The notes under the pieces are model-generated. The model ran no database searches. It was given only the letters and a program-made list of their open reading frames with translations, and was not told where the DNA came from. The translations under genes and the position numbers were made by a program. A DNA stretch of 63,405 nucleotides, filler included. It is 9 parts of 9 records of this genome, joined end to end, with 100 filler letters (N's around TTAATTAATTAA, not from the genome) between each part and the next. Parts side by side here need not be neighbours in the genome. Positions count along the whole stretch, not along the records: positions 7,433 to 17,223 come from SRR31147125_12555; 8 more parts are not named here. One strand, written 5' to 3'. Below are positions 5,736 to 25,955 of this stretch, in pieces. Every line of letters starts with the position of its first letter. The stretch's first letter is position 1.

Positions 5736-7166
5736 TTAATTTACCGGTAATGTAACTGTAAATGTTGTTCCCAGGCCAACTTTGCTTTCCAGAGTGAGTT
5801 TTGCACCGTGTTTTTTTATAATTTTTGCAACTAAGTCTAATCCAATTCCTGTTCCTTCTCCTGCTCTTTTGGTTGTAAAAAATGGTTCAAAAATTTTCTG
5901 TTTGTTTTCTTCTGAAATTCCGCATCCGGTGTCGGAAATAGCAACTTTAACTTTATCTCCTGCATTTTTTATTGAAATAGTTATAGTTCCAACATTATCC
6001 ATGGCATGAATAGAATTTGATATCAGGTTGGTCCAAACCTGAACCAGCTCATCCGGATAACAACTAACCATTGGTACGTCATCAAATTCGGTAACAACTT
6101 CAATGCCCTGCTTTAAATGGTTATGATGGAGCGTTAGAACTGTTTCTATATTCTCCACGAGGTTCGCTTTTTCTTTTTCTCCTCCCTGATCTTTATGAAT
6201 AAAACGTTTTAAAGCAAATACTACTTTCGATGCTTTTTCAACAGCCATTTTTATATTGTCTGAATTTTTGCGAACCGAATAAATGTCTTTAACCGATTTC
6301 AATATAAATTCAGGATTGTCTACTTTTAATAAAGGGAGCAGATCGGCAACTTCGTTATATAAGTTTAAATAGATAATAAGTTCTGTAATTGCCAGGGGAT
6401 CTTGAAATCCTGCCTCTTCAACTTTTTGCCTGATTGCTCGTTTTTGTTGCCGTTTTTCTTTCGATGATAGAGGAAGAGCTTTACGATCAATCAGATTAAG
6501 AATGCGTAAAAATACGGTGAGCTCTTTTTTCGACAATTTGGTAAGTAAGCTGTAAAGGTTTTGTAACGATGAATCGAGCGAAGCAGAAATATTTTCAACA
6601 GAAGCATTTATCGCTCCAATTGGCGTATTTATTTCGTGCGCAATACCGGCAACCAGATGTCCCAGTGCTCCCATTTTTTCCGACTGTACAAGTTGTGATT
6701 GTGTTTGTTTCAGATTCGAAATATTTTCTTCCAAATCTTCTTTTTGCTTCTGTAGTTCCTTATTTTGTTTCGTTATTATTTTTTCCTGCTGTTTCCGTTC
6801 AGTAATATCGTGTGCAACTCCGTCAACCGAATCCAGCTTCCCTTTTTCGTCATACAAAGGCGATTCGGTAATTTCAATAACTTTTATTTTTCCGTCTTTG
6901 GTGTAAAGTTCGAGTTCGAAGGTTTTTTGTTTGTGACCCGATGCACTTTTCTGCAGAGTTTCAATGGTTTTTTTATTCTTTTTGCTGTCGGTCATGTGTT
7001 TTACAATACCTTCAAAAGCTTCTTCTACAGTGTATCCCAACACCGTTTCAACCGATGGGCTAATATATAAATACTCGCCAGCCAGATTATGAGAATAAAA
7101 AAAGTACTCATTTCCAACGCTTTCAATCAGCTTTTTATATTTTTTTCCGTCTTCCATATCAGGCAA
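5736..7166 (-). CDS. Cytoplasmic PAS-domain sensor histidine kinase (NtrB-like)
   Basis: PAS/PAC (YISPSVETVLGY, HDITERK), AHEINTP H-box, N/G1/F/G2 boxes; the start may be the ATG at 7157. Confidence 0.92.
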   Translation of the reverse strand: MPDMEDGKKYKKLIESVGNEYFFYSHNLAGEYLYISPSVETVLGYTVEEAFEGIVKHMTDSKKNKKTIETLQKSASGHKQKTFELELYTKDGKIKVIEITESPLYDEKGKLDSVDGVAHDITERKQQEKIITKQNKELQKQKEDLEENISNLKQTQSQLVQSEKMGALGHLVAGIAHEINTPIGAINASVENISASLDSSLQNLYSLLTKLSKKELTVFLRILNLIDRKALPLSSKEKRQQKRAIRQKVEEAGFQDPLAITELIIYLNLYNEVADLLPLLKVDNPEFILKSVKDIYSVRKNSDNIKMAVEKASKVVFALKRFIHKDQGGEKEKANLVENIETVLTLHHNHLKQGIEVVTEFDDVPMVSCYPDELVQVWTNLISNSIHAMDNVGTITISIKNAGDKVKVAISDTGCGISEENKQKIFEPFFTTKRAGEGTGIGLDLVAKIIKKHGAKLTLESKVGLGTTFTVTLPVN

Positions 7167-7332: not shown

Positions 7333-7432
7333 NNNNNNNNNNNNNNNNNNNNNNNNNNNNNNNNNNNNNNNNNNNNTTAATTAATTAANNNNNNNNNNNN
7401 NNNNNNNNNNNNNNNNNNNNNNNNNNNNNNNN
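7333..7432. other. Artificial contig spacer
   Basis: 44 N + TTAATTAATTAA (stops in all six frames) + 44 N. Confidence 0.98.
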
Positions 7433-7443
7433 GGGGTATTTAA

Positions 7444-8058
7444 TCAATCGAGAATTACATCGAGCCCTGCAAGTAAAGAAACGGCCTCTGGAAGGGAAAA
7501 TCTAGTCTTTTTTATAAGGTTATTATTAGGGTCAATTGAGTAATTAGTTGCCAGTCGAAAATCAGATTGCGTTAAATTAGTTTTTAGAAACCGGCTACTT
7601 GTAAAATCCGTAGCGTTAAAGTTTCCGCTTGCCAAATTAGCTTCACCAAAATCTACATCCCTCGCAATGCATTCGACCATTATCATTTTTGTAAGGTTTA
7701 GCCCAAAAAAAGAGGATAAGTTTATCAAACAAGAGTAAAAGTTAACACTCAGGGGTGTTGCCGCCTCCGTCCAATTAACACCAACCAACTTACTATCCTT
7801 AAAGTTTACATCAATAAACGAACAATATTGAGGCTTAACCAGGCTAAGATCACATTTTGTGAACTCACAATCTTCGAATCGACATTTTTGGAATATCGAT
7901 CCGCTAAATTTACAATTTACAAATTTACAATTATAAAATTCAAGGTTTTTAAAATCTCCGTCTTTTGACTCTTTTTGTTCAAACGTTTGCCCTTCATGGG
8001 TCTTCTCAAACCCAGCCCACCGACTGTTCTCCTGTGAAAACAATGGAAGCTCTTCCAT
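7444..8058 (-). CDS. Pentapeptide repeat protein (MfpA/Qnr-like fold)
   Basis: Repeated [CA]xFxx/xDLxx pentapeptides; C-terminal YSIDPNNNLIKKTRFS motif. Confidence 0.88.
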   Translation of the reverse strand: MEELPLFSQENSRWAGFEKTHEGQTFEQKESKDGDFKNLEFYNCKFVNCKFSGSIFQKCRFEDCEFTKCDLSLVKPQYCSFIDVNFKDSKLVGVNWTEAATPLSVNFYSCLINLSSFFGLNLTKMIMVECIARDVDFGEANLASGNFNATDFTSSRFLKTNLTQSDFRLATNYSIDPNNNLIKKTRFSLPEAVSLLAGLDVILD

Positions 8059-8135
8059 ATCAAAACCTCATGAATAATACGTGCTAGAATTCCAACCCCG
8101 ACTGCGGCCAGACAGAACAAAAGTCTCTCATTTTT

Positions 8136-8693
8136 CTATTCTCGCCAATGTTCTGGTTGATTAAGCACCTCGGAACACTGGATTTTTCCTGTTACTCTTC
8201 CTATAACCCCATTACTTAACTCTTGCACCATCCAAGCACCCGCATGTTCCTCTGGAATGGGATATGGGGCTTCGTAACCAAGTGCCCCTGCCGGGATAAA
8301 GCCAGAGCGTGGATAATAATCCGGATGTCCGAGAACAAAGACTAACTCAACACCTGCTTTTTTTAATTGACTCAATCCCTCTTTGATAAGTTGGCCACCA
8401 ACACCCTTACTTTGAACATCCGGCAGAACTGCGAGAGGTGCAAGTATTTGGGCAGATACTGACTCAGAAGATTCTGTTACTGTCACCTTCGTATAAAGTA
8501 TATGACCAATAATCTTGTTATCTTCAACTGCTACAAGCGATAGTATTGGGATTGCTGTTTCATCATTCATCAATCCCTGTACAAGTTCCGCAATTTCAGG
8601 TCCTTTTTTTTCGCCAAAGGCCTTTATATGAACATTGCTTATTTCTGTTTTGTCCGATTCTGTTGATTTTCTAATTTCCACAATAATCTCCAT
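8136..8693 (-). CDS. GNAT N-acetyltransferase (YhbS-like)
   Basis: LAPLAVLPDVQSKGVGGQLI and VFVLGHPDYYPRSGF. Confidence 0.92.
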   Translation of the reverse strand: MEIIVEIRKSTESDKTEISNVHIKAFGEKKGPEIAELVQGLMNDETAIPILSLVAVEDNKIIGHILYTKVTVTESSESVSAQILAPLAVLPDVQSKGVGGQLIKEGLSQLKKAGVELVFVLGHPDYYPRSGFIPAGALGYEAPYPIPEEHAGAWMVQELSNGVIGRVTGKIQCSEVLNQPEHWRE

Positions 8694-8744
8694 TTTGTGC
8701 TGAAAAAAATTTGCCCAGCAAAAATTTTCATAAATTAATACGGG

Positions 8745-8841
8745 CTAGGAGTCTGTCGGACATAGGGGATCGTAACGAGAAAAGTGGAAACTGAGGCGGT
8801 GTTTTCACAATGGATTCATTCTAAGTCAGACAGGCTTCTAG
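8745..8841. mobile_element. 97-bp MITE with CTAG at both ends
   Basis: Left end CTAGGAGTCTGTCGGACATAG matches the reverse complement of the right end (CTAGAAGCCTGTCTGACTTAG) at 17/21 positions; no transposase ORF. Confidence 0.7.
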
Positions 8842-9653
8842 GTTTATAGTTCTCCCGCAACCGCGTCTCAACGAACCCGAACTTCCGTATATTCTTGTAT
8901 GAATGTTGCGGGTCCCCGCCAACAGCCTCGCCCGTTTCCGTAAAGATATGCGTACAACGAAGCTCTCTGGCTTTAGATATTCGTGCGGCAATAATCGCCG
9001 CCTGACTCCCCTTGCGGCGAAACTCCGGGCTGGTAGCCCCCCAATCTATCCAGGCCTTGTCCCCCACCACAAATAATGCTCCGGCTCCCGCAGGAATGTC
9101 GCCCTCATAACTGACAAACAAGTACCAGCGCGGGTCATCGGCAAGCCCGGCCAACAAAGGTATTGCAGCATCTGTCAGATCAAAGGCGTTGCAGACAATC
9201 CTGCCAAAATCTTCCGCTTTATCAGGGCAGATTTCTTCGATTCTTAAATTCGTGGATACCTCAATTGGCGGTGCCGCATCACGATGAAAGTTCATCCAGC
9301 CGCGAGCCTTTCTCAAGCCCGGCGTCCGATAATCGTTGGGGCCATTCATTGGGCATATCGTTCAAGTAAAGATGCAAGAAAAAGCTGCTGACACCTAATT
9401 TCTGATAAGCATCCACAACTTTTTTTATGGATCCCAACTCCATCGGCGCACCCGAACCGAGTCCCAGCACCCTGTTTAACAGAATACTTGTGTCATTTTC
9501 AGCAGCAATTACAACGGCGTCGGCAATTTCTAACAGATGCAACCCGAGACTCTTCCTTGTTTCCTCAGGACAGTTAGCATGCAGGCTGATTAATGCCTCA
9601 CGCTCTATCTCATCTGAAACACGCTCTATTTCCAACATTTCTGTTTCACTCAC
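8816..9653 (-). CDS. GNAT-family acetyltransferase, split by a 1-bp frameshift near 9309
   Basis: ATSPEFRRKGSQ acetyl-CoA motif and SYKNIRKFGF; removing one base at about 9307-9311 joins SDAGLEK to ARGWMNF (about 278 aa). Confidence 0.8.
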
Positions 9654-9915
9654 CTTTCACGCTGAAACAAGAATATAAATCTGGTGCCTTTTCCGCACAT
9701 ATCCACAAAATTATCCAGTTTGAAGTAGTCAGTCTTGAAGTTGATGTCCACCTTTCCCATGGTTTTGGCAAACAGCTCATCCCGAGCCTCTTTACTTGCG
9801 GTATTGCTCTGCCTGTTCGCGGTTACCCTGACCTCCATTCCATTTTTTCCACCATTAGCCTGGTTACACCCATAAGTACCAGTTCGCTCAGGGCTCCTCG
9901 TTGTTCCTTTGCCAT
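9650..9915 (-). CDS. Small hypothetical protein, probably frameshifted
   Basis: ATG at 9915 reads MAKEQRGALSELVLMGVTRLMVEK; one extra base in the T6 run at 9843-9848 continues into NGMEVRVTANRQ...FLFQRER (about 88 aa); its stop overlaps the next start (GTGA). Confidence 0.5.
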
Positions 9916-9933
9916 GTTTGCTTGCCAAATCCT

Positions 9934-10623
9934 TTAAGCCGATTCCTCACTCTTCTCACTCGGCCGGTACCGCTCAATAACCTTTTTGAATTTTTCCAGA
10001 TCACCCTCCGCACCGGAGAACATAGCTGTAAAATCGTCATTCCCAAAATATGCCGCTCGTTGCTGAGTTGTAATCTTTGATTTTTTACATTGCACCCAGA
10101 TTGAAGCCCATGCCTGAAAAATACAGAGAGCAACCAGTATCCAAAAGGAGTTCTCCGGCGCTAAAGCCTGGCTCGAAGTCCCGATATGCTCGCGAAGAAT
10201 CGTCACAAAAATCGTTATGCCCAGGAAACAGGCCATCGGAATTGTGTAATAGTAGGTCATCCACCGCGACATCCCCTTGCCTTCTGCCGAACACATCATC
10301 ATGGTTCTAATTGGCGGCATTTGAGGGTTGTCATGTTCCCACTTCAGACCCACCAGGAATACCGAGTTCAACAATCGCTGATAAACCAGCTGATCATTAA
10401 TCCATAACAGCAAAAGACCGATGGTGGCCATTAAACTCACGAGTCCAACCAGAACCGCACTTGGAACCAACCAAGTTGAATCTTCGCTGATTTTTATCAG
10501 AACCGCGATGGCCGCGAAAGCCGCAAGAATCCAAGTCGAAGCCCGGTTGCGGATTCCAGCCTGGATCGTGTTGAAGTGACGCTCCGACTCAACAAATTTC
10601 CAATATTCCTCTTTTGAATCCAT
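9934..10623 (-). CDS. Hypothetical membrane protein (about 4 TM segments)
   Basis: 229-aa ORF with four hydrophobic stretches; GGAG SD upstream. Confidence 0.75.
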   Translation of the reverse strand: MDSKEEYWKFVESERHFNTIQAGIRNRASTWILAAFAAIAVLIKISEDSTWLVPSAVLVGLVSLMATIGLLLLWINDQLVYQRLLNSVFLVGLKWEHDNPQMPPIRTMMMCSAEGKGMSRWMTYYYTIPMACFLGITIFVTILREHIGTSSQALAPENSFWILVALCIFQAWASIWVQCKKSKITTQQRAAYFGNDDFTAMFSGAEGDLEKFKKVIERYRPSEKSEESA

Positions 10624-10715
10624 GGTCTAAATCTCCATTCGGGAAATTCTGTTGAAAGTATTAAAGAGCTCTTTACCTTCGATCACAAGAATGGGCATGT
10701 TTGCCATTTACCTCA

Positions 10716-11843
10716 TCACCAACTCTCTTTTTTCGGCTGGAGAGGAATCAGCTCATATTCACGACTCCCAAGTCCTATCTTTTCAGCATGCTCCAGAGTG
10801 ATATTTCCATCGATAAGCGGATGCACCCCCCTGAATTTATCGCCACCCGGTTCATGCCCTTTCTTTAAAGCGGTTCCCGGCAGACCCTGGGCCTGGTTGA
10901 CCAGATCGAGGCAAGCCTGGTCGACGGCCACCGGGTCGGTTGAGGCGAGGATGCCGATATCCGGAACGATCGGGGCGTCGGAATGGCCGTAGCAATCGCA
11001 GTCCGGTGAAACCTGCATGACAAAATTGACGTGCAACGATTTTTCCTTTTTACCTTCCAGCGCTCCGACAGCATACTCGGCCATTTTTTTCATGACCATC
11101 GGCGCACTCTGGTTCCACTGAATCTGGATCGCCCTCTCAGGACAGGCCGTAATGCAGCGACTGCAACCGACGCACTTCTCGTCAATAATCCGGGCCTTAC
11201 CCTCGGCAAACTCGATGGCGTCATGAGCGCAGGCTTTCAGGCAAGCCCCACAACCGGTGCAGAGTTCCACCGCAACCTTCGGCGCAACGCTGGAGTGCTG
11301 CTCCATTTTCCCTTCCCGGCTGCAGCAGCCCATGCCGAGGTTCTTTACCGCGCCACCAAAGCCGGTGAGTTCATGGCCCTTGAAGTGGGAAACGATCACC
11401 ATGGCATCCGCCTCCAGGATTTCCAGTCCGATATCGACGGTTTTAAGAATTTCCCCGTTGACTTCGACCCGCCTGGCGGAATGCCCGCGCAATCCGTCGC
11501 ACATGACCAGGGGAGCGCCGACCACGGCATAAGCCAGGCCGTTTTCAATACCGCACCTCAAAGCCGAGACGGCTTCTTTCCGTTCGCCGGGGTAGAGCGT
11601 GGACGAATCGGTGACAAAGGGCCTCGCATCCAGTTCCTTGAGGCGCTCGACAACGCTGCGAAGGAACGTCGGCCGCACAAAAGCGTGCCCCCCTTTTTCA
11701 CCGAAGTGCGTTTTAACTGCGACCAAATCCCCTTGGAGGATAATATCCGCCAATCCCGCGTCGTTCAGAAGCCTGACCAGTTTAGTGTGTAGATTTTCAT
11801 TGTGTCCTGAACGCATGTCGGAAAAATAAACCTTTGAAGACAT
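10716..11843 (-). CDS. DUF362-domain protein with a 2x[4Fe-4S] ferredoxin insert
   Basis: VAVKTHFGE, SHFKGH, GGAVKNLGMG, CTGCGAC...C, CVGCSRC...CP, CDC and DPVAVDQA. Confidence 0.92.
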   Translation of the reverse strand: MSSKVYFSDMRSGHNENLHTKLVRLLNDAGLADIILQGDLVAVKTHFGEKGGHAFVRPTFLRSVVERLKELDARPFVTDSSTLYPGERKEAVSALRCGIENGLAYAVVGAPLVMCDGLRGHSARRVEVNGEILKTVDIGLEILEADAMVIVSHFKGHELTGFGGAVKNLGMGCCSREGKMEQHSSVAPKVAVELCTGCGACLKACAHDAIEFAEGKARIIDEKCVGCSRCITACPERAIQIQWNQSAPMVMKKMAEYAVGALEGKKEKSLHVNFVMQVSPDCDCYGHSDAPIVPDIGILASTDPVAVDQACLDLVNQAQGLPGTALKKGHEPGGDKFRGVHPLIDGNITLEHAEKIGLGSREYELIPLQPKKESW

Positions 11844-12037
11844 CTTTTTCTCCTCTCTTTTTCAAATAACTCTACAACAAAGCGCCGGAAAATAATGGCC
11901 CGAAAACTTTAAAATCTCCGGCGCCTGTCAAATTTTGCCACTCTGTTTAAGTTTATTAATGTTTTTATGCCGACACATGGGAATTTCAGTGAAAGATGAT
12001 ATCATAAAGAATATGTTTTTTGAAAAGGAGGGATAAA

Positions 12038-13078
12038 TTGGATCAGAAACAGCGATTTCAACTTCTGCAGAGAGCCCGCCTGAAAAGCATCCTGAAAAAA
12101 AGCACCATTTTTCTAATTGTCGGTGTTCTCCTTTATTATGGTATCGCACTGGTTTACGCCACCAAAACCATTTACAAAGTCCGCTTCAATTACGCCGTAG
12201 TCCTGGAGGACCTCGCCGGCAAACGACGGGTCGTGGACGATGTCGGCTGGCATATCCGACCTCCTTTCTTTTCACGCCTCGAACTGGAAGTTCCGCTGAT
12301 GAACCAGGAGCTTTATCTCGGCGGCGACCCCCAGGAGCAGAGGATCATTTCCAGGGGAAATGTCGCTCTTTGGGCCAGCGCCATGCTGACCTACCGCATC
12401 ACCAACCTGAAAAGATGGGGCATTGAAAACCGTGACCCCAAACAATTGTTCCAGAATGATTTCGACGGCATGGTCAAGGACGTGATGCAGGGAAAATCGA
12501 TCAATGAACTGATTTCCCAGCGCCAGGCCCTCAAGGAAGAGATCTACCAGATTCTCAAAAAAGACCCCATCAATGTCGGCGGACCGACCATGGAAGATAA
12601 ATACGGTGTCGAGATCATTTCGTTTGTTCTGCGCAATACCCGCTTCGGCGATAAACTAGCCGAGGCAAGTGAGGAAAAGAAGCGCCGCGAAATGATTGCC
12701 GAAGCTGAGAACTACGCGGCTGATCAGGAGGCCAGCAGGATCCGCAAACTGTATGCGGCTTATCGTGATTCCATCCGCGATTTCAGAAACGCTCTGGGCT
12801 TTAATCAACAGAATGATCAAGTCCTCCTCGATTTTTTGAATCAGCAGAAGTGGGCAACCGCTTACGAAAAAAACCAGCACGGGCAGAACACCTTTGTCCT
12901 GAACAATACCGCGGGAAGTCCTCCCATCGTTCTTCCCGCGCCAACTGCTTCGACTGGGATCGAACCGCCTGAGTCAGGAAACAATGGAGCCACTGGAAAC
13001 CAGGTCGTACCGGGTCCAACCCTGACGGAAGCCCTGAAAAAATATCCCTGGACCCAACAGCAAAACGCAAACAAGTAA
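12038..13078 (+). CDS. SPFH/band-7 (HflK/HflC-like) membrane protein
   Basis: AAGGAGG SD before TTG at 12038; single N-terminal TM; GWHIRPPF, YRI, INELISQR and YGVEIISFVL match SPFH; C-terminal coiled coil and Pro-rich tail. Confidence 0.8.
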   Translation: MDQKQRFQLLQRARLKSILKKSTIFLIVGVLLYYGIALVYATKTIYKVRFNYAVVLEDLAGKRRVVDDVGWHIRPPFFSRLELEVPLMNQELYLGGDPQEQRIISRGNVALWASAMLTYRITNLKRWGIENRDPKQLFQNDFDGMVKDVMQGKSINELISQRQALKEEIYQILKKDPINVGGPTMEDKYGVEIISFVLRNTRFGDKLAEASEEKKRREMIAEAENYAADQEASRIRKLYAAYRDSIRDFRNALGFNQQNDQVLLDFLNQQKWATAYEKNQHGQNTFVLNNTAGSPPIVLPAPTASTGIEPPESGNNGATGNQVVPGPTLTEALKKYPWTQQQNANK

Positions 13079-13240
13079 TCGGACGAAAATAAGGAGTTGA
13101 CACCAGATTTCGGACCCGGCAAGGAAAATCAATCCGGTCCGTTAAACCTTATTCGAGTTTTTCCACAACCTGGTAGCGGGGACCCAGCCGGTTGCACTTC
13201 CGGCACCCTCGATAAATCGGAAAGGAGATTCAAGGATAAC

Positions 13241-16200
13241 ATGTCAACCGTGCGCAAAACCAAAACCCCCATCAACGTCCGGCTTTCCGAGAAACGTTTA
13301 CGTCAGATCCAGAATCTGGTTGAAAGCTGGAATTATGAAACCCGCAGTTTCGTTCTTCAGCGCCTGAGACAATACCATCCCAAGCCTTCTCTTTTCAGAT
13401 TCATCCGCATTCTCCTTCGCCGCATGCTCCAACCATCAGAACGCCGCTTCCATATGCTTCGCAATCCCGAATCTCTGAGCGACTGGCATCGGCGCATGGA
13501 GATTTCAGGCTCCCCCAGCGCTTCGGCGGCATGGAACAAAATATTGGAACGGGAGCTCGACCGCCACGACTACTACTATCTGACCTATCTTCTTGAACGG
13601 GAAACCGCCGATATTTACGTCCCCCAGTACCTACGGGACTTTTTTGAAAAAATCTATCATGCTCATGTCCTGAAAGAATACTCTGAGGACAGCTCCATTC
13701 CACGCTCGCTGGTTTTGATTATCGGATCTTCAGGCAGCGGGAAAAGCGCCACACTCACCCAGGCCTTGGAAGAAACCATTTTTTCCATGGAAGTGCGCCC
13801 CACCATCGATCTGAAAGCCAAAAAGGAAGAGGTTCTTAAGGAGCAACCAATCTGGAAAGGGCTGGAAGAGGTCGACCCGGAACTGGCAGCTGAAATTGAA
13901 AGACGCCGCAAGGTTGAACAGCTGAAATTTCTCTCGCGACTTCCGGTCATAAAATATTTGTACCGGCAGCGGGTGGCCCAGGCCCTCTCGTCACTGGAAG
14001 AAAAAGGGATTCTGGTCGATTATGCCCAGATCACACCCAACGACTTTCAGACCGCCTGGGCCGGCGAACCGGGCAACCGCCTGCGCAAAGCCATGGGTGA
14101 AGCGGATCAACCCTGCATTCGTCATCTCGAAGAAGCCCACTCGGCATTCGGCCGCCTTGATCAGACCAGTTCCGTCAAAAGTCAGCAGGCAACCCTGGTG
14201 GACACCGCCAATATCCTGCTCGATGAAATTTCCCAGGGCAAGCGGGATTGCCTTCTTATCGCCACAACGGACCAGCCTGAGCAGTTCGAGCCATCTATCT
14301 ACAGGCGTTTTGTGGAGCGTGGACAGATCATCGACATCAATGACCTCTGGCAGCACCCTGAAAACCTCAAGGAAGTGGTTCGTCTCGAGCTGCGCCGCAG
14401 CAACTTTTTCCTCGCCACTTCAGATGAAAAGGAGGAAATCAATCAGGAAGTCCTGCTCGATGAGACGATCGAAAAAGTTCTGCCGATCTTCCACGAGCGC
14501 ACCCTGCGGATGACCCCTGCTTACCTGCGCCGGCTTATCGGTTCGATTATCGCCCTGAAAAAAGATTTTCATCCCAGCTACCTGGATGATCAGTTCCTGG
14601 TCCGGGATGCCTTCAAGGCGGTTGCCAAAAACGTCTACGGCTCACTGTACAAAAAAGTCATCGGCCGCATGGAGCGCGATGTGCACTGGCAGGACTACAT
14701 CGGGTCCATCAAGGATGAGTTTTCAGAGATGGCCAACAATTCTCTTTTTTACAGCGTCCAGGATGAAAAGGGCGTTGTCCTCTCCGGCCCCCCGGTTCGG
14801 GAAAAACCTACATGGTAAAAGCCTGGCTGGGGGAAAACACCGAGGTCCAGGATATTCTGGTCTACATGAATGATCTGAGCGATCCCGCGAATCCCTATGA
14901 GGGATTGGTGGAAAACCTGGAGCGCGTATATGACATTGCCAAGATGATCTCACCCAGCCTGGTCTTTTTCGATGAAGGGGACGCCATTGCCCCGCGCCGT
15001 TCCCAACAGGGGGAACGCCCTATGATAAAGTGACCAACAAGTTTCTCTCCATCATCGACGGCGAAGCGCCTCTCCACCATGTGTTTACCGTTTTGACGAC
15101 CAACCGCCTAGACATCCTCGATCCGGCCTTGATCCGCTCCAAGCGACTGAAGGTGTTGAACGTCTCCGGTCAGATGCGGGAAGAGGATTCGGTAAGAATT
15201 CTGCGTAAAGAGATAAAGGATATTCCGCTTGAGGAAGGCCTTAATCATGAGGAAATGGTCCGCATCGCCCGCGGCCTGTGCGACACTCCGGCTGATTTTA
15301 CCGCTTACGCCGAAAAAGTCCGCAGCCTGCGGCAAACCGAAGTCGAGGTCCTGGGCCAGCTTGCCAAAGCCATTGCCGGTACTGAAGAGGAGCGCATGCG
15401 TTTTGTCCGCTTCAACCACAAGACCCTTCTCAGTCTGCTGGAAGGAGTCCCCCACCCTACAAACCTGATCGCAAAAGCGCGCCGCAGCGAAGAGGACATG
15501 CTGAAATGCCTGGATGAAGTCGCCAAGCAACTGCAGGAACTCAGTCAAAAGGGCGGCTATCCGGTCACTCGAAGACATCTGATTAACGCCAGACATCAAC
15601 TGGGTCGCAGTCCGACCCGAAAAGGCAAACAGCAGCTTGACCGCTTTCTCGAAACAGAGCTTTCGGTGGAACCTCAGGTCGGTTTTGTCGTCGGCGTCGG
15701 CGCCAATGATGCTTCCGGAGTTTTGCTCCCTATTGCTTCGTCCCTTGTCTACCGTGTTTTTTCGGAAAAAATTGTCGTCACGGGCGCGGTGTCGACGACA
15801 GCACCCGGCGCAGCTGAAATGGATATGGCCGTACAGATGACTCGCCAGAGCGCCCAGGAGGCACTGACCCTGACGGAAAATTACCTGCAGTCCCTCTGTC
15901 CCACACTGAACATCTCACGGATTCTGGGTGAATATCTTGAAGGCTACTCTCTGCACCACCAACTTCTCAGCGCTTCCTATACAGTCGGAGGGCCATCCGC
16001 CGGGTTTGCCCTGGCCATCAACACCCTTTCGGTGCTTCTAAATCTTCCGGTTCTAAACGACTTCGGCATCACCGGAGCGCCCTGGATCAAGGGCGCACAA
16101 AAAGATGAGGTCGGCGCTTCGGTCATCATAGGCGGTCATCGCCGCAAAACCGAAAAAGTGCTTCAATACCTCCCTCGCATGTATATGCCGACCCAGAATT

Positions 16201-16649
16201 ATGAGGATATGGAACCCGAAATTCTTAAAGCTTACCGGATCGAAGGCAAAGAGATTCGCGGCGTACGCAGTTTTTCAAACCTGGTTCAGGAAGTCTTCTT
16301 TTTCGGCGATGAACATTTTCAGCGTCTCGATAAATTTCTCAATGAAAGACTCGAATACGACCTCAAAGAGCACCCGGAAAACGGCGACAATCCGGAAGAA
16401 GCCCGGCTGGCCGATGAAGAGAGCAGGTTGCGGCGCGTTGCTGAGGAGGAAATCCGCCGCCGCATGATGATTATCAGCGACTATGTGACCGGAGACAATA
16501 AATCCAGGGACTATTCAAGCCTGGAAACAGCTTTCAGCAATTTGGCCAAAGGTGAAGCGAAATCCGGCATCCCATCCCGCAGAACTGACACCAGCTCGGA
16601 AAAAAGAACCCTAAAGAAAGAGTCTTTGCCGGCAAAAAATGTCCTTTAG
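13241..16649 (+). CDS. Tandem classical AAA ATPase fused to a Lon (S16) protease domain; two 1-bp frameshifts
   Basis: D1 GSSGSGKS / HLEEAH / IATTD..IYRRF; D2 GPPGSGKT (after +C at 14788-14793) / VFFDEGDAIAPRR / TTNRLDILDPALIR (after +G at 15009-15013); Lon domain GGPSAG, GITG, IGGHRRK; about 1136 aa reconstructed. Confidence 0.85.
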
Positions 16650-16739
16650 AGTAGTTGCGAAAACAGCTTCTATCCTTTAAACTGTAGTCATTTCATTTGC
16701 TTTTAAAAACAAACCGTCTTTAAATTGAGGGAGGCAAGA

Positions 16740-16898
16740 ATGGACAAATATCGTTGTGTCGTGTGTAATTATATTTATGATCCGGCCGAAGGTGATCCGG
16801 ATGCGGGCATTGCCCCTGGAACCGCTTTTGAAGATATTCCGGAAGATTGGGTTTGTCCTCTCTGCGGCGCGGATAAAAGCAATTTTGAAAAAGCCTGA
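16740..16898 (+). CDS. Rubredoxin (52 aa, missing from the ORF track)
   Basis: [59 protein letters not shown]. Confidence 0.97.
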
Positions 16899-16911
16899 TT
16901 GAGGTCAAATT

Positions 16912-17100
16912 ATGGACCGGCAACCCTTTGTGGATCAGGAAGCTTGTATAAGCTGTCATTTTTGTGTGGACACGGTTCCGGAAGTTTTTCGCATGAACGA
17001 AGACAATTCCGCGGAGGTTTATAATCCTTCCGGAGCTCCCAAAATAAAAATCATTGAAGCTATTGAGGGATGCCCGGTTTCGTGCATCCATTGGGATTAG
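16912..17100 (+). CDS. Single-cluster ferredoxin
   Basis: CISCHFC...CPVSCI; GAGG SD. Confidence 0.93.
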   Translation: MDRQPFVDQEACISCHFCVDTVPEVFRMNEDNSAEVYNPSGAPKIKIIEAIEGCPVSCIHWD

Positions 17101-17223
17101 TCCATTTACCCGGATTATTCATGAAAACTTTTACTGCAACCGTCAATTGCACACCATCTCAGACCGTGCTCACTCCTTGCTCTTCGACGTACAGAAAGTA
17201 CGCCTGCATCGCGCGTCACTGTG

Positions 17224-17323
17224 NNNNNNNNNNNNNNNNNNNNNNNNNNNNNNNNNNNNNNNNNNNNTTAATTAATTAANNNNNNNNNNNNNNNNNNNNN
17301 NNNNNNNNNNNNNNNNNNNNNNN
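17224..17323. other. Artificial contig spacer
   Basis: Same N/TTAATTAATTAA/N linker. Confidence 0.98.
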
Positions 17324-20300
17324 ATCATCAAACACAGTAGCAGCACTCGGGCGGCTGACGGACCTGTGCAAGTCCTGCAAACAATCCTCCCATCATTTTG
17401 TAGTCCATTCCCTCGGAACAATTGTAGACCTTGCAGGGTGTGAACACACACGTACCCACCCACACCACCCCTATGGAGGCGTACCACACACTGCCTCCCG
17501 AGTGCCTTAGCAAGATCCTTTACAGTTTCCGTTTTACCCGTTCCGGCAGGCCCAGCAGGGGATCCGCCCAAGTGAAGCCGCAACGCACTCGTCAGGGTAA
17601 GATCTGTACCATCAGAGTTAAGGTACAGTTGGAGTGGAACACGAAACGGGATACAGCATCGGTCTGTCAGAGGTGTCACCACAAGACGTGTTGTAGCTCC
17701 CAGATACTCATGCCCGTAGAGGAAGCGTGAATTTGTTTGCTGAACGATACAATCGTCTTCATCCATGTCCCAGTAGAACCTTGAATCCCACCACCCAAAG
17801 TCAGAGAAACCCAATCCCCTCTCTCCACCCTGTCTCCTTCCACACGGACCTTAGTTGTTGGAGCCACTGGAAGTCCGTTTCCGTCGATACCTTGCTTTTA
17901 ATCAAGTGATCAATGATATCACGGGCGTGTACATCAATAGTGATCAACGTCACCAGGGCACAACGTTGCAGACTCGTAATATCCTTGCGCACAAGAGACG
18001 CAAGACCATTGAGCTGTTCCACGCACTTCTCTTTCATCTCCCCCAGAGCGTCAAGCGGGTCATCGGCGCTCAGGCATTGCGTTACGTCGCGGCACCAGTA
18101 GATTTGTGAACCTGTAAGAACCACTTGTGCAGGATACTCGAGCACCCATTGTTCACGTTCGACCTTTTCATACCTGAGAAGGAACGCAAGGTTAAGGAAC
18201 CCGCTTGGGCGTGCGTGGCAAGGGGAACGGATACTCCATAACAGCCGTGCGCAGGATTTTTCGCAGGCTTTGCATCATGCTCTGTTCAACCGCTGCAAGC
18301 CATAACTCCACATTGCCCCTTGCCTTCAAATTCTTGCCCAGAGACACACGCTCGCCCTCCGCTGAAATCATTGCCAGGATATCCACGCTGCGAGGATCAT
18401 TTCCAAAGTCCAACGAGACGATATCTGTAGAAGGTTAAGCAGGACAACCCAACCCAGAGAGGACAATTGAAAGAGGGGATACTGTCAAAACATTTGCGCA
18501 GATGGGGCTGCACAGCTTGGGCATTCTTGCTCTGGGCTAGAATTTCCAACAACTCATCATTAGAAAGGAAGTAAAAACGTGGGAACTTGTTGCGCTTTGT
18601 CTCGAGGTAATCTTCAAGATTCTTCTGCACCTTATCCAGTTGTTCATTGTTCTTACGGAGCGCATCCAAGAGACCGGGAATCGTTCCTGCCTTCACAGCA
18701 TTCCGGATATCGCTTGTACGCTTCATGATCTCTGAAAGACAATCAGAGGAACACACACCAGAAATCCACACACCCTTCCATGACTTGTCCACCGCAAAGA
18801 ACAATTTCGCCTCCACGGGAAGCTGTCGTTGAATGTCGAGAGCGGTGAAGATGCTTTCCAAGTACAACCAATTCTTCTGACAGGTCATCAACTCTTCCAT
18901 GGTTCCAGAAAAGAGTGACAGGTTCTTTTCCCACTCCTCTACCGTCTGTGCGCGAAACCCAGTGTTAACTCATCATCTCTCTCCGTTTGAGAGAAGGCAA
19001 TACCTTACGAATTGGTTCCACGTAACGTGAAGCGGCAATGGTTGCCACAGTTACCTGGCTATCATCCAATAACGCCATGATATCTTCCGAGTTTGTCACG
19101 ATATAGCCGTCCTGTGAATCCTTGTGCGCCACGACATTGATCTCCGTCTGAGCCCAGGTGCGTGTCACCTTTCCGAACAACTCCTCCAAGGCAACCTCTT
19201 GGGAGGCCTCGTTGGCCACCATTCCGATACTGTCTCGAACTTGGTGCGGCAGATACATGTCAAAAAAAAAAGAAGAGGTCCTTGACCCACAGAACGTACA
19301 TGTGAGGAACTTGAGTCGAAACAGGTTTCCAACTGTGAAACCCTTGTCCCGGAAGACATCTTCACCCAGAACCACATTGAGCTTCTCCCAGTGACGCGCT
19401 TGTAGAGCAGGATTCCGTAGATCTGATAATACGGGAACCGCGTTCTGATAATCCATCCCATGAGAATGAGTGAGTCGGGCCGCACACAAACACGCACCTT
19501 GAAATCACTGATCAAGGCTCGAAGACGCGAGACAATGATATTGGGGGGCAGAGCTCGTTCAAGTGCAAGAACCTGCTTCAAGTAACTCTGGACACTTGTC
19601 TCCACGGCCCCCATGTCCACGGTCTGGAGGGGTGTCTCCTTCCATTGTGCAGTGATCTCTTCCCAATCGTTAAACGTAGTCCATAACTTGCTCTTGAGTG
19701 TCAAATCGGAGACCACTTCTTCAAGCTCCTCATATTTCGTGACAGGAACCCCCAAGATCTCCTGGTATTCGCCAAATTTGGCGGCATCGGCGGATAAACG
19801 GTCCACTTCGTTTTGGATTCCCTGAAGAAAGTCCAACACCTCACACAGTTGCGATTCACCCGAAAGGATCTGTTCAGAAGTAAAGGGGAGAAACGAAAGC
19901 GCTTCATCTATCGAATGGATACAATTGGATGTTGAATCTTCTGTTTGAGCTCGGCAATGGAAATGTTAAGCTTTCCAATGTTCGTTTCAAGTTGGGCCAC
20001 GAATTTTTGCGCGACTGTGAGAGATGTAAGGCACACACACAAACATGAAAAGGAAGAAGGTTCGATGGATACTCTCATCCTTGGCACCCTCGGAATAGTT
20101 CAAAGACGCTTTCAGTTGTGTCAATGTTGGGATAAGGCGTTGGAAGTCATGGTACTCGGACATCATCACCTTGATCTGGTGGAGAGTCAAAACCTCATGA
20201 ACAGGACGGGGCGACTCATACCTTATTCTCCTCCATGAGCTTATAGAAGTCTGTAACCATGCCAACCTTTTCCTCGAGATCAGGCAACTCTCCGGTCATA

Positions 20301-23061
20301 CGGTGGATTGTACTCAAAAAGTCAACAAAATCTTCCACCTGCACGGAAGATGTCAGAACACCACACCCCCGACCCCACACACAAACCGATGTCGGTGTGG
20401 CCGAGAGACTCTGAATGGCGACTTGGAGTTCCGAAAGAACAACTCCCGTCTTCTCTCGTGCGATAACAGGTAATAACTCTTGAATTTCCTTGAGACATCG
20501 TCGTGGTGAGGGTGTAATGAGTTCCTTGAATTTCTTGCTATCCACACGCAAGATTCCAATGTTCGTTGTGGTGGTGAGACTAATGAAGTCACATGAGTAA
20601 GAAGGGCACAGCGAAAGGGGAGGGGGGGGACGTACCCATCAAACTCCTCAACCTGACTCTTGTACTTCTTCATGTCCTTTCTGAAGTCATCGGCCAAGTA
20701 CCCACCATCTTTGAAGGCTTGAATGTCTTGGAAGGTGAGTAAAGGGTCAAAACTGAGAATACGACTACTACAGCGGATACTTGTGGATCGATTCTCCAAG
20801 TGCATCCCCAGGAAGGGCTCAAACCACTTGACATGCTCCAATGCGGCATTGAGAGCACTGTCAATGGCATCCAAGATCTCGCCCACGACGTCCTGATATT
20901 TGTCATCTTCCAGGATTATTACGCTCAGATCGTTTCCTCGGTTTGCCGTGAGTTCAACAATGTCGGCCGTGATGTGCCGGAAACCCTCCTGTAGGCAGCA
21001 GTTCATTCCTCCATTCGTGTACACACGCACACACACACACACATACGCCATCGCACCTCAACCAGAAGCTTGTCGACGGAGGATACCGCCTTCACAAAGT
21101 AGCAGATGATGGCCTTGATACGTCCCTGGAAATCGTCTCGAGACGGTTTGAACACGAACACATCGTCGTTCACCAGGAGCTCAATGACACAGAGCGGAGC
21201 ATTCGATGCCTCGTGTACACGTTTCTTCGGTGGTGCAGACTGCGACGACGCATCGACGCGCTCAGCCCCCGGAAGAGCTGTCTTTCCTCCACCGCGAAAG
21301 ACACGAAGGAGATCGTTAAGGGATTCCATGCACAGCAGTCGAAGTGCGTCCAGCATGACAAAGTCACAGAGTCGAATGTCTACAGGATCGCTTAGATTGT
21401 TTTCCACCCGCCACCTGCCACCCGCCACCCACAACACGTACAATTAACAAGTTTTCGGCACTCGAGACGTTTAGCAGCCATCTCCGTGTAGGATAGATCT
21501 TTTTGGGTCGAAGCCACTCCAAGAGGTTTCAGGCGCTCCGTGTTTCGAGAATGGAGGGTGGCAGAGATAGAAGATGCTCCTGTGCCGCCGGCATTCACCA
21601 TGGCAATGTATCGCTCGGCTTCCATTCCGGCACTGGCAAGGACGGCATCGCACGCTTCGTGGACGGTTGAACGAATCGCTTCCCAGAATTTCTGAAAGTG
21701 TGTGGCCACAACAGCTTTTTGGGCCCTCTGGAGTCCGAAGAACTCCTCAAGTGTAACTGTACGAATCGTCAAGGATTTGTGAGGGGATGGAGAACTCCCC
21801 CAAAGGAGGATGGATATGTCTGGTTCCTTGCCAGTTTGTAGAGTTGTAACGTACTAATCTCATAGCATCGATCGCGAATGGCAAGAAGCGACTTGCGAAG
21901 GGGTGTGCTGAGGATGAAGAGGTTGTCTTCGAGCACGATCTTGGCCGCGTCCATCTTGCTTTGCCGTACATTCTTCCTCCATACCGTATACGCCTTTTGA
22001 CAAAGTGTGTGTGTCCCCGTCAGTCAGTCCTTCCATGAAGGCACACCAGAACCGGAACAAGGTACCTTCCATATACGATATTTCTGAAACGTTCCGATTT
22101 GTAGTAGTCGATTGAACACAGAGTGTTCACGTTCCCATTGTTCGAGTGGTGTGAATTCTAATACGAAGGGTGTTTGAGAAACGTAGGTGCATGCATGATC
22201 ACACTTCCAACCTGCCAAATTGTTGACGAAATGGGTCACTCCTGCAAGACTTAGTGTGTAGTAGTCTGTCACATTGATCGCCGAATGGGGTACAACTTCC
22301 AGATTGTATGGGTTGAAGATCTCGGACTCAACCGGTTTCATGTACACGAACTCCCCTTCCTTGCCGCTCTCACGAGCTTGCCTGGATCGATCGTTAAGGA
22401 TTTTACCTCCCAGCCCCAGTTCATGCCATCGAACACCCCCAACAACCACATGGATACGGATGAACACAGAGGGATCGCGTGAGGCCTCCATCCCACCCGA
22501 CGTTCGGGTAAGAGAGGGAAGGTTGTTTCTTTTTCGCGGAGGCACACGAAGCAGATCCTCTTCGTGTGTGGAGGAGAGGGTTCGAGGGTCGGGTGGGGCT
22601 GGGGCAGGTTCCTGTGGCGACAATGGTTAAGGGGTTTCGCCTACAACACAGGACGGCGCCACAGGGAGAATTGCGGATACAAGGGGCGTCAAGTGATGTC
22701 CTTTGGGAAAGGGAACGCGGCCCTGTCCCGTCGAGTCGACGCAGGTTAGAGTGGGATGGGTCGTTCCGCGCCCAACCAAACCCATCCAACGCACCCGCAG
22801 GTCGGCGTCCCCAGTTTCACCTCCTCGCATACGCGCCGCTCTCGCTCCGCGTACGAGGAGGGCGGGTCCTGTGGGATGGGGCAGGTCGTAGAGGCGGGAG
22901 ACCGGTGCCGATGGCGAAGAGCCTTCACCGACATCGCCCGTTGTGTCGGTTGCCTCTGCATGACTGCCTCCCGGTGTGTTTGGTTTGTTGGCGTCTTCGA
23001 GGTCTCTGCCACCGTTGGTAGGGGAGGGACTTACGCGCCGACGGTCCTCCTTACGCTCCAT
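17324..23061 (-). CDS. Axonemal dynein heavy chain, DNAH6-like (multi-exon, truncated in AAA1 at the contig edge; 5' end approximate)
   Basis: Exons encode [86 protein letters not shown] and YNCSEG; GT-AG introns at 17430-17484, 17604-17654 and 17780-17849 restore the conserved frame. Confidence 0.93.
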
Positions 23062-23132
23062 GGTGTGTCAGCCACTCATGCAAGCAACACACCGCAGGGA
23101 GAGAGTTGTGCGAAGTCATCACCGCCACACAC

Positions 23133-23203
23133 CATCATTCATCATTCATCACATCATTCATCATCATCATCATTAGGATCATTAGGATCATTAGGATCGT
23201 CAT
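23133..23203. repeat. Low-complexity (CAT)n and (CATTAGGAT)3 repeat between divergent eukaryotic genes
   Basis: Directly visible tandem repeats. Confidence 0.75.
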
Positions 23204-23229
23204 TCCTTTCCTTTCTTCCCACTCCTCCG

Positions 23230-25955
23230 CTGATGCTGGGAACACCCATGTTGAGTCATGTAGAGGAGAAGAGAGCTCGTCGCAACGGAGGACGACGCTC
23301 GCCAGCTCGAAATAGTCGAGGAGGACCCCCCGACCTCCCCAGCTTAACGACTATGTAATTCAATCCGTGGAACCTGTCGTAGCACCCACACTGGTGTGCT
23401 CCTGATCCCTTCAGCCGAAGCGTGCATTGTCCCCGACTCATGCCGATTTCTACACAGCACAACCCCGAGGCCACCCCGCCCCATGTGCAAGAAGCCTTTC
23501 GTATCTTCAGTGGTGCACGGAAACGAGTGGTCCCAGAGAAGCCGCGGTTTCTTCCATGTGAGCCACAAACTCTCACCCCCAGAAGTTCGAAATGGACATC
23601 CCGAGCACTACTCGTGTGTGGAGCGGTGTGATTTCCCACCTGGTGTTGACAAACAAGTCGTTGTGCAGGCGATGGACCACCCAAACGAGAAGACGGAACA
23701 GACGCTGATAACGTTCGTGAGGAGCTTCTTGTCCACTCACATGCTCGTCTTCCAGGAGATGAGGTCTGAAACTGGCCTTCTCGGGGTGGGTCTCTCACTT
23801 CCCTCCTTTCAGGCACGCGTTTCTCTGTTTCGATGCTATGAACCGGAATTCGAATGGTTCAGTGCTGAATCGCACGTTTGTGAACGACGTCCACTTCCTG
23901 AACGCCTGGAAGATGGGTGCGTGTCGTGTTGTTTGTCCTCTCGTTGCTCACGAGATGCATAGGGCCGTGCGATTCACCGTGGAATGTCTTTCATTCGAAT
24001 TGGGCTTGCAAGATCTCGAGCCATTGTTTTGTTCTCTGGCGTTGTACGACCTTGCCACCCACGCAAAGGTGTCGGAGGATTTTCACGTTGACCTGAACAC
24101 CGAGCGTGCCCGGAGTGGATTCAACGTGGCTCTTCTGTTGGTTTGTCCTTGTCGTTGTCACCTTTTTCCCTTCTCTCAGTTCTGCGTAGGGTGGGATGGG
24201 AGAGGACTTGGGGCGCACAGCCCTCTTCTCTGTCTCGGATCATCCTCTCGATGACATCTTTCTCGTACTACACGTGGAAAAGATTCTCGGGACTACAGAT
24301 CCAAAGACCTATCTCTCCCCCTACAAACACCCCGAATCGGTGAGGGGAATGAGTATACTCGTGCTGTGTGACAGACTCATTGGAGATGGCTTGCATAGAA
24401 AACGGCATCGGATCGATCGAAGCTGCATGACAAGCTGTCCGAAAGCGCCGTACGTTTGGGTGAGTTCAGGCAAGCGTTCCTTTGGTCGGCCCTTCGACTC
24501 CTCGATAAGAATCGACAGTCCTTATTGGAGGGAGAGGTGAAGTTCTCGACCTTGAACCGCGTGAAGGAAAGTCTTTCCTTGTCGCGTCAAGTGGACCTCA
24601 TCCAAGAAAGTCTTGTGCGTGTACCTCTTTGTAGAGTTGATGATCCTGACGGGTGTCTCCGTGAAGGATCCGAAAAAGCATCCCAAGACAATCCCGGGAT
24701 GCTTCACGATTCGAATTACACATCTTACAGATTCCAAACTGCGACCATCAACCTTACTTGATGCCAGCATGCAGCGTCTTGTCGTCCCGCCCGATCAGTC
24801 CATGACTCACGACCCAGGAGTGCGTTTGTGGCGTGTCCTTTGAGCTTCGATCAGAGGATCACGCCCGGGTAGATGACACGCGAGGTAATGGAAACACCCG
24901 TACGAACACCCGTGCAGCCCGTCTTTGGTTATCGAAACATTATGTACCTCTATCCAGAGGGCGTAACGGGACTTGAGAAGTATCGCAACATATCGGTTAT
25001 GGTTGGGTTGCACGAAAGCGACGCGGAAATACGGCAGGGTCTTGAGGTGCGTATCGACGATGGCAGACTCGTGTGGGGTAATGGGGGAAATGGTCATCAG
25101 GCCATATTTCGCAAGACTCGTGGTCCCGACTTGTCCACTTCTGCATTCAGCCAGGTCACCTACCATCGACGTGATCCTGTTTTTGGAGACGAATTTAAGA
25201 TCTGGATCCCCGATTGTGCCTCGCAGAACCATCACTTCCTCTTCACGTTTTGGAATATTAGTTGTGCCAATCCCAAGAAGGCCGCCAAGGTGAGAGGTGG
25301 CGACGAGATCAGAGACGTTGAGAATTCATACATCACAAACACAGACAGCCATTGGGTACTCTGTCCTCCCGCTGTTTGAATCTCAAAACAGGTACGAAAA
25401 GAGGATCTTTCCCCGCAAGAGACAGTCTCATCGTCTTCTGTAGGCTTCTATCCGGTCCGTTTGTACTCCCCGTCTTTGTGAATCTTCCCAAGAATTATCG
25501 GTCATTCGTTAAGGTAGTGTGATATGCGCACGCACACCTGCTTCTGTTGACCCCCCCACCACCACCCTTTTTTCTTTCTTTCTTTTTCTTGATTAGCCAA
25601 ACGCGACCCATTCGGCACTTTTTCGGTTGAGTGTCGTGGTGGCATCTTCCGTATACCCGACGAATTTCTATCTGGCAAGCTTCTTCACGTTCTATCCCAC
25701 CACTGGCCATTTATCGGATGCTGCAATGATACGGGTATGATATGGCCTCCTTTGTGTGTTGTACACTTAGGAACTTGGTTGTACAGGGTATTGGAGACTT
25801 GTTACAGACAGACAGTATTGTTGCTGCTCCATTTCTCTATCATATTCTGAATCAACTCTTCCGATCTATTTGTGTGGGTTCAGAAACAGTTCGTATTGAA
25901 GCCCAGCGAGCCATGACAAGTGTCCTCTCAAGGTGTGTGTGTGTGTGTGTGTGTG
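23230..25955 (+). CDS. DOCK-family Rho GEF (DOCK6/7/8- or zizimin-like), multi-exon, 3' truncated; 5' end uncertain
   Basis: EPLFCSLALYD...KVSEDFHVDLN, DIFLVLHVEKIL, RLGEFRQAFLWSA, YRNIMYLYP, and C2/DHR-1 segment VTYHRRDPVFGDEFKI...HHFLFTFWNISC; well supported from about 23960. Confidence 0.85.
25933..25955. repeat. (GT)n microsatellite at the contig end
   Basis: Directly visible. Confidence 0.9.

Follow-up and report, generated by a model that had tools for sequence, protein, structure and literature searches.

ATP-dependent proteolysis in bacteria is usually ascribed to Clp, HslUV, Lon, FtsH and the proteasome. In HflK/C-FtsH and in prohibitin-m-AAA, a membrane-anchored SPFH protein is coupled, genetically or physically, to a hexameric protease of the classical AAA type, and how the SPFH assembly controls its protease is still debated for HflK/C-FtsH and for the prohibitins. 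Here we analyse a locus at positions 12038-16649 of a stretch of joined contigs of 63,405 nucleotides (the window), in which an SPFH gene is followed on the same strand by a gene for a protease with two AAA modules and a Lon peptidase domain. The locus is a real, ordinary-looking copy of a protease system that has so far gone undescribed, a two-gene unit of sediment bacteria consisting of an SPFH protein and an uncharacterised protease in which a double motor of the Cdc48 type is fused to a Lon peptidase.

The pair at this locus shares features with HflK/C-FtsH and prohibitin-m-AAA. Protomers of HflK/C and of prohibitin match the structural model of the SPFH protein, and its predicted N-in orientation is that of HflK/C. 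HflK/C is, however, a heteromeric pair, whereas a single SPFH gene stands beside the protease here, and the protein scores 17.2 bits against the HflK model TIGR01933 (cut-off 159.4), which places it outside HflK/HflC. FtsH is anchored in the membrane and combines one AAA ring with an M41 zinc peptidase; the protease considered here has no transmembrane (TM) segment or periplasmic domain, would build two AAA rings and carries a Lon Ser-Lys dyad. The stomatin/QmcA-NfeD systems (PH1511-PH1510; QmcA-YbbJ) are likewise two-gene SPFH operons, with a serine protease as the partner in archaea. Here the partner is a protein other than NfeD, ATP-dependent and not embedded in the membrane, and clustering of the open reading frames (ORFs) in the flanks found no conserved NfeD-like gene near the pair.

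With Cdc48, VAT and p97 the protease shares two tandem classical AAA modules, and these proteins give its best sequence and fold matches in the PDB. They have a CDC48_N domain, whereas the protease has a helical, family-specific N-domain and an insertion of about 80 aa in its first AAA module (D1); Cdc48/VAT passes its substrates to a 20S proteasome, a separate particle, whereas here the peptidase is fused at the C-terminus. A C-terminal Lon domain with a Ser-Lys dyad is likewise found in LonA, LonB, LonC and LonBA (MEROPS S16), the only Lon subfamilies given in the available text of PMC9569914, and a Pro precedes the catalytic Ser, as that text describes for LonA. Lon proteases have a single Lon-type AAA+ module, in contrast to the two classical AAA modules of the motor here. 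Full-text literature searches returned no paper on the pairing of an SPFH protein with a protease of the Lon type, a partnership that the original prediction, made from the letters of the window, had taken to be undescribed, nor any on a fusion of a Cdc48-like motor to a Lon peptidase. The accessible part of a survey of prokaryotic SPFH proteins makes no mention of a Lon-type partner (PMC2636767), and the link of SPFH proteins to Vps4 systems of Methanobacteriales, as it appears in the accessible part of a paper on ESCRT (PMC11188069), concerns a different system.

Results

The SPFH gene and the protease gene form a strictly conserved pair

The two genes lie on the plus strand in the following order.

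12027-12031 (+), ribosome-binding site GGAGG, 6 nt ahead of the TTG start; homologues begin at the same codon
12038-13078 (+), SPFH/Band-7 gene of 346 codons, start TTG at 12038 (Pfam Band_7)
13079-13240 (+), spacer of 162 nt, in which a ribosome-binding stretch rich in purines (GGAAAGGAG ... AAGGA) precedes the ATG (alignment with the related loci L001 and L007)
13241-16649 (+), AAA-AAA-Lon protease gene of 1136 codons, ATG at 13241, in three frames in the window; the intact form in the relative P0001 has 1137 aa (alignment to P0001)

Pfam and hydropathy recovered each element of the arrangement that had been predicted, a single-TM SPFH gene lying 162 bp before a same-strand protease gene, at the positions given for it. 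The ATG at 13241 corresponds to the start codon position of all full-length relatives of the protease.

A scan of one genome per species returned 341 stretches encoding a relative of the protease, and the best 80 of these 341 were analysed. The 80 loci span 51-100% protease identity and carry the labels Desulfuromonadales, Desulfobacterales and Deferrisomatales; the pairing counts thus cover Desulfobacterota-like bacteria, with the distant clades P0243-P0250 (33-38% identity to P0001), one member of which is named as a Woesearchaeota metagenome-assembled genome (MAG), lying outside them. In 78 of the 80 loci, the gene immediately before the protease gene, in the same orientation, encodes a homologue of the window's SPFH protein (48-92% identity), and the two remaining loci have only 23 and 17 bases of upstream sequence, which makes the count 78 of 78 where it is informative. 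The original prediction had proposed to score this adjacency, and protease homologues mostly devoid of an SPFH neighbour, the outcome that would have spoken against it, are not what the loci contain. In a sample of the phylum the protease occurs in 10 of 401 genomes; the same 10 carry the SPFH subfamily, adjacent to the protease gene, and the other 391 have neither. In metagenomes the pair was present in 3/3 full-length loci, all of the main clade, and 30 further matches were partial or generic AAA proteins. Clustering of all flank ORFs gave no third conserved neighbour, the largest non-overlapping cluster being present in 18 loci.

This gene order and strict co-occurrence, which we observed directly, make the two genes a strictly conserved pair and not a product of chance. 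Such strict pairing argues for a functional link between the SPFH protein and the protease, which had been proposed for the locus and which comparative genomics (78/80 loci paired, the same 10/401 genomes carrying both) strongly supports.

The projected gap between the two genes is 7 nt or less, often an overlap, in 73 of 78 loci. The wide spacer is confined to the clade of the window, with 162 nt in the window, 148 nt in L007 (6852-7000) and 330 nt in L001, where the region 6653-6836 contains about 165 extra bases. The part of the spacer that is shared includes a TTGACA hexamer and the conserved ribosome-binding stretch; a search of 13079-13240 found no terminator-like site and no Rfam match. 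Very negative projected gaps at some loci implied SPFH-protease fusions, and these proved to be artefacts of the stop search.

L075 and L078, which come from a single MAG record set (JBNKKC01), each bear an SPFH-protease pair, which reflects either two copies in the bin or a mix of two strains. In the ESM Atlas, archaeal clusters of ~910 aa (Thermoproteota, Bathyarchaeota) combine AAA, AAA_5 and Lon_C with a feature score of 0.95, and they may represent a shorter related build.

The protease combines a Cdc48-like double motor with a Lon peptidase

Along the protease gene, the following domains and motifs were delineated.

13241-13690 (+), helical N-domain, family-specific, about 150 aa, with many nearly invariant columns (AlphaFold2, AF2, model)
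13709-14662 (+), AAA module D1, with Walker A at 13724-13747, pore loop AWAGE at 14054-14068 and Walker B HLEEAH at 14123-14140 (Pfam and alignment)
14705-15335 (+), AAA module D2, with Walker A split by the first frameshift and Walker B FFDEGD at 14965-14982 (Pfam and alignment)
15669-16295 (+), Lon (S16) peptidase domain, with the Ser in GGPSAG at 15987-16004 and the Lys in GGHRRK at 16131-16148 (Pfam Lon_C; matches to PDB Lon P-domains)
16296-16649 (+), C-terminal helices that contain an invariant Glu and an invariant Arg, ending in a disordered tail (alignment and AF2 model)

Pfam identifies in the protein two AAA modules (PF00004) and a Lon_C domain (23.9 bits, cut-off 21.1). Together with the GGPSAG and GGHRRK motifs, this bears out the earlier description of a protein that has two AAA modules and a Lon Ser-Lys protease domain and lacks an obvious TM segment. 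The N-domain matched no Pfam family, CDC48_N included, and the insertion of about 80 aa in D1 falls, in the AF2 model, between the Walker motifs. A hydropathy search for TM segments in the protease found none, the only hydrophobic windows lying in the Lon core; candidate TM helices at residues ~815 and ~922 were rejected, as they correspond to a strand of the Lon core and to the helix after the catalytic Ser.

Residue conservation was counted in 66 aligned family members, including distant ones with 33-38% identity to P0001. The Walker A Lys and the Walker B Glu of both modules (K169 and E299 in D1) are invariant in 66/66, as are the Lon Ser (GGPSAG) and Lys (GG-x3-K). The pore-loop residue of D1 is aromatic in 61/66, and that of D2 is Leu in 48/66 and Tyr in the copy of the window. 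Between Ser921 and Lys971 of P0001 there are 49 residues, compared with the 42 given as canonical in the available text of PMC9569914 (a Ser-Lys distance of 50 versus 43).

When the profile of the 66 members was compared with the PDB, VAT, Cdc48 and p97 were matched by both AAA modules, in two stretches, at E values of 6e-54 and below. Foldseek with the AF2 model of the protease (pLDDT 81) gave Cdc48, p97, Rix7 and NVL as the best folds, with Cdc48-type matches at E 4e-20. The Lon part alone, searched with phmmer against the PDB, matched solved Lon P domains (8dvh at 1.9e-5, 3k1j, 1z0b and 1xhk). Against the NCBIfam models for lon, LonB, spore Lon, CDC48 and FtsH, the protease remained far below all cut-offs: it scored 30 against TIGR00763 (cut-off 608), 25.6 against TIGR00764 (cut-off 517), 23.8 against TIGR02903 (cut-off 679) and 34.3 bits against TIGR01243 (cut-off 802.65). 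Judged by profile and by model, the motor resembles that of Cdc48, VAT and p97, and not that of LonA, LonB or LonC.

The SPFH protein is a single-pass member with the fold of cage-forming relatives

Three parts of the SPFH gene need to be distinguished.

12038-12103 (+), basic N-tail of 22 residues with 7 K/R, one Arg of which is invariant in 73 sequences (alignment of homologues)
12104-12160 (+), single TM helix (hydropathy, and a continuous helix in the AF2 model)
12188-12733 (+), Band_7/SPFH domain, after which come a long coiled-coil helix and short strands at the C-terminus (Pfam match over residues 57-238 of an ORF of 352 aa)

The Pfam assignment to Band_7 (PF01145) is at 70.5 bits against a cut-off of 23.6 (E 2.3e-19), and exactly one hydrophobic segment was detected by hydropathy in 116 of 118 SPFH homologues. 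The AF2 model (pLDDT 79) comprises an anchor helix, the SPFH domain, a 50-residue helix (211-259) and short terminal strands, so that an N-terminal anchor, an SPFH domain and a long coiled-coil helix occur together as they do in the cage-forming members of the family; the region past the coiled coil is strongly conserved. Foldseek matched the model to protomers of HflK/C, stomatin, prohibitin, QmcA, erlin and flotillin over 230-300 columns at E 1e-12 to 1e-9, the QmcA structure 8z5g being among them, and whole-protomer matches to HflK/C, stomatin, prohibitin and QmcA had E values of 1e-11 to 1e-12. A profile of the SPFH family searched against the PDB gave no match at E up to 0.01, and the link to the solved cages is one of fold comparison. 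The genome of the nearest relative, G001, contains four Band_7 genes besides the one of the pair, two of them adjacent to each other at another place in the genome, which argues that the SPFH protein of the pair is an extra paralogue and not the HflK/C of the cell.

In 117 of 118 SPFH homologues the N-tail contains more K+R than the 15 residues that follow the TM helix. This excess favours an N-in/C-out arrangement, and we consider it somewhat more probable than the reverse that the SPFH dome lies in the periplasm, as in HflK/C.

The frame breaks lie in the window sequence and most likely not in the organism

The protease gene of the window is divided among three ORFs (13097-14818, 14812-15033 and 15030-16649), which align end to end with P0001 at 96, 95 and 92% identity. 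Three sites account for the difference from an intact gene.

13706-13707 (+), missing codon, an assembly error; one-residue gap relative to P0001, with CGC behind 13706 in the contig of sequencing run X1
14788-14793 (+), C-run with the first 1-nt deletion, which falls within Walker A of D2, GPPGSGKT (comparison with L001); a C is added behind 14787 in the contigs of runs X1 and X3
15009-15013 (+), G-run with the second 1-nt deletion (comparison with L001); a G is added behind 15008 in the contig of run X1

The Logan contig of run X1 spans 12038-16649 with 0 substitutions and adds CGC, C and G at exactly the three gap sites, and the contig of run X3, from another study, also carries the missing C. 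Run X1 may be the source sample, in which case its contig is a re-assembly of the same DNA and not independent DNA. The two indels that the original prediction had posited were thus located as 1-nt deletions in a C-run and a G-run, both filled in the X1 contig, with one codon missing besides. Constraint on the protein was observed along the whole gene: relative to L001, the three pieces have dN/dS values (ratios of nonsynonymous to synonymous substitution rates) of 0.062, 0.0 and 0.093, the 1121 codons compared give 0.079 together, and the purifying selection extends downstream of the frameshifts (0.0 and 0.09). Of 201 genomes sampled from the order to which the nearest relative belongs, 50 have the protease gene, nearly always as one open frame.

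Because the X1 contig carries the missing C, G and CGC, the breaks are most likely assembly errors. It had been suggested that the split would hide the protease from automatic annotation; this holds for the window only, as the relatives are intact and are present in databases under names such as 'AAA family ATPase', the split being an assembly error.

The contig and its surroundings

The window consists of nine contigs joined by N44-TTAATTAATTAA-N44 (7333-7432, 17224-17323 and six more), with G+C ranging from 33% to 55%, so that features cannot be read across the joins. The SPFH/protease locus sits on contig 7433-17223, which is bacterial; its span from 9693 to 17106 has 91% DNA identity to L001, a Desulfuromonadales MAG. 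The pair is flanked by redox genes.

10716-11843 (-), DUF362 Fe-S protein gene
16725-17100 (+), rubredoxin and small 4Fe-4S ferredoxin genes

The DUF362, rubredoxin and ferredoxin flanks are syntenic with L001 and are not kept beside the pair in other loci. A search of the contig against Rfam gave no match. Further upstream, the ORFs 9279-9653 and 8816-9349 (-), the latter with a GNAT domain, overlap by 71 nt in different frames, an overlap that may stem from one more single-base error of the assembly; a check against the relative G001 found no homologue there. The final 120 bases of the contig (17105-17223) match inverted places of L001 (10474-10753 and 15322-15914) at 86-90% identity, a pattern suggestive of a short dispersed repeat that follows the ferredoxin gene, and this repeat may be the reason why the contig ends there.

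On the adjoining contig, 17324-25955, fragments of a dynein heavy chain lie at 17324-19839 (-), with matches to PF12774 (3.7e-24) and PF08393 (2.5e-52 and 3.8e-9), broken into short ORFs in an intron-like pattern. These fragments indicate that the record mixes organisms, eukaryotic DNA standing beside bacterial contigs. Another contig carries a large NAD-glutamate dehydrogenase gene (Bac_GDH_CD, 1e-229) at 37475-41949 (-), which runs into the contig edge.

Discussion

We lean, with moderate confidence, towards a model in which the SPFH protein, as scaffold or regulator, and the soluble AAA-Lon protease act jointly at the cytoplasmic face of the membrane in ATP-dependent extraction and degradation of proteins. 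In this model the SPFH protein would be a single-pass protein that, like other SPFH proteins, probably assembles into a large ring or dome at the inner membrane. The protease would be soluble and probably a three-tier hexamer, in which the D1 ring, whose pore loops are aromatic, and the D2 ring are stacked on a chamber lined with the Lon Ser-Lys sites, and substrates would be threaded via D1 and D2 into that chamber. The family-specific N-domain might serve as a docking or recognition module. The pair would then extract membrane-associated proteins from the cytoplasmic side and degrade them at the expense of ATP, with the SPFH assembly as an obligatory scaffold or regulator of the protease, and would constitute a functional analogue of HflK/C-FtsH and prohibitin-m-AAA made of different parts. 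We infer hexamer formation, SPFH binding and the membrane location of the substrates; the conserved catalytic and ATPase residues, the purifying selection and the folds are, like the gene order, direct observations.

Let us assume that the dome is periplasmic, as the charge distribution suggests. A soluble protease would then meet only the 22-residue basic N-tails and could not be enclosed; on the predicted topology it is doubtful, and in our view unlikely, that the SPFH protein literally cages the protease. What we may tentatively picture instead is a division of labour loosely resembling endoplasmic-reticulum-associated degradation, in which a periplasmic SPFH dome marks a patch of membrane and the ring of basic N-tails signals its state to a cytoplasmic three-tier Cdc48-Lon hexamer, which dislocates and degrades the proteins of the patch, both activities residing in a single polypeptide. 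This more specific scenario seems to us possible, with the odds against it.

Several observations weigh against joint action in the form proposed. The pore loop of D2 is without an aromatic residue in 59/66 family members, and the wider Ser-Lys spacing may mean that the geometry of the active site differs from that of known Lons. The predicted topology is based on charge counts only, 7 K/R in the tail versus 3-4 after the TM helix, and the flank following the helix is itself basic, which weakens the N-in/C-out prediction. Strict pairing speaks for a functional link and does not imply binding. In the window's clade, a TTGACA hexamer in a spacer of 148-330 nt, in place of an overlap, suggests that the protease gene may have its own promoter, and a search for RNA runs that carry the locus found none. 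Finally, no fused SPFH-protease protein was found among 4886 longer candidates, although this is weak evidence.

The same pairing would also fit an SPFH protein that is the client of the protease. Cdc48-type unfoldases typically dismantle oligomeric assemblies, and in keeping with this habit the Cdc48-like/Lon engine might grip the N-tail, pull protomers out of the ring and degrade them, thereby controlling assembly and disassembly of a membrane microdomain. The N-tail is the only part of the SPFH protein predicted to lie on the side of ATP, it bears the invariant Arg, and a strict 1:1 pairing with no third gene suits an enzyme with a single client. However, a dedicated protease of 1137 aa for one structural protein would be costly, and the known partners of SPFH proteins (FtsH, m-AAA and NfeD) act on other substrates. 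We regard this explanation as unlikely.

In the literal form of the original prediction, the dome would be cytoplasmic (N-out, the orientation of QmcA or flotillin), and the protease hexamer would be enclosed by it or docked to it. This reading gains from the fact that the SPFH model fits QmcA and stomatin protomers as well as those of HflK/C, and from the conserved C-terminal region past the coiled coil, which could be a docking surface. It would, however, require translocation of an N-tail with 7 K/R, which is unfavourable, in a family where 117 of 118 members have the K+R excess in that tail. The interior of known SPFH cages is small next to a three-tier hexamer of 1137-aa subunits, which would amount to about 770 kDa. 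On balance, we consider a cytoplasmic dome improbable.

Let us also consider a stress or anti-phage suicide module, with the SPFH protein as the sensor of membrane damage and the protease as the effector. The patchy distribution (10/401 genomes in the phylum, 50/201 in the order), the variable neighbourhoods and the occurrence of two pairs in one MAG (L075 and L078) are of the kind that such modules would produce. Against it, no PADLOC family was matched at E below 0.004, the weak matches (E 0.004-0.0075) being to generic P-loop proteins; the neighbours are housekeeping redox genes (for the DUF362 Fe-S protein, rubredoxin and ferredoxin), and mobile-element genes were not seen on the contig. 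We deem this reading very unlikely. Least probable by our estimate is a true pseudogene decaying in this organism after two frameshifts, for, despite the two 1-nt deletions and three ORFs of the window sequence, both deletions fall within homopolymer runs, the X1 contig restores C, G and CGC with 0 substitutions, the X3 contig restores the C, and dN/dS stays at 0.0 and 0.09 past the shifts.

Returning to joint action of the SPFH protein and the protease, the system can be put to the test, since cultured carriers exist: Malonomonas rubra DSM 5091, Geothermobacter hydrogeniphilus and Desulfuromonas sp. DDH964. For the window itself the practical lesson is that homopolymer deletions in the record disrupt real genes. 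If the protease is active, a Cdc48-type double motor fused to a Lon peptidase would be a new build on the list of bacterial ATP-dependent proteases. Should the scenario resembling endoplasmic-reticulum-associated degradation hold, it would be a sixth architecture of bacterial ATP-dependent protease, and its protease the first SPFH partner that is not membrane-embedded. With one SPFH gene and a soluble partner, the pair would offer a second, simpler system in which to ask how SPFH assemblies control proteases.

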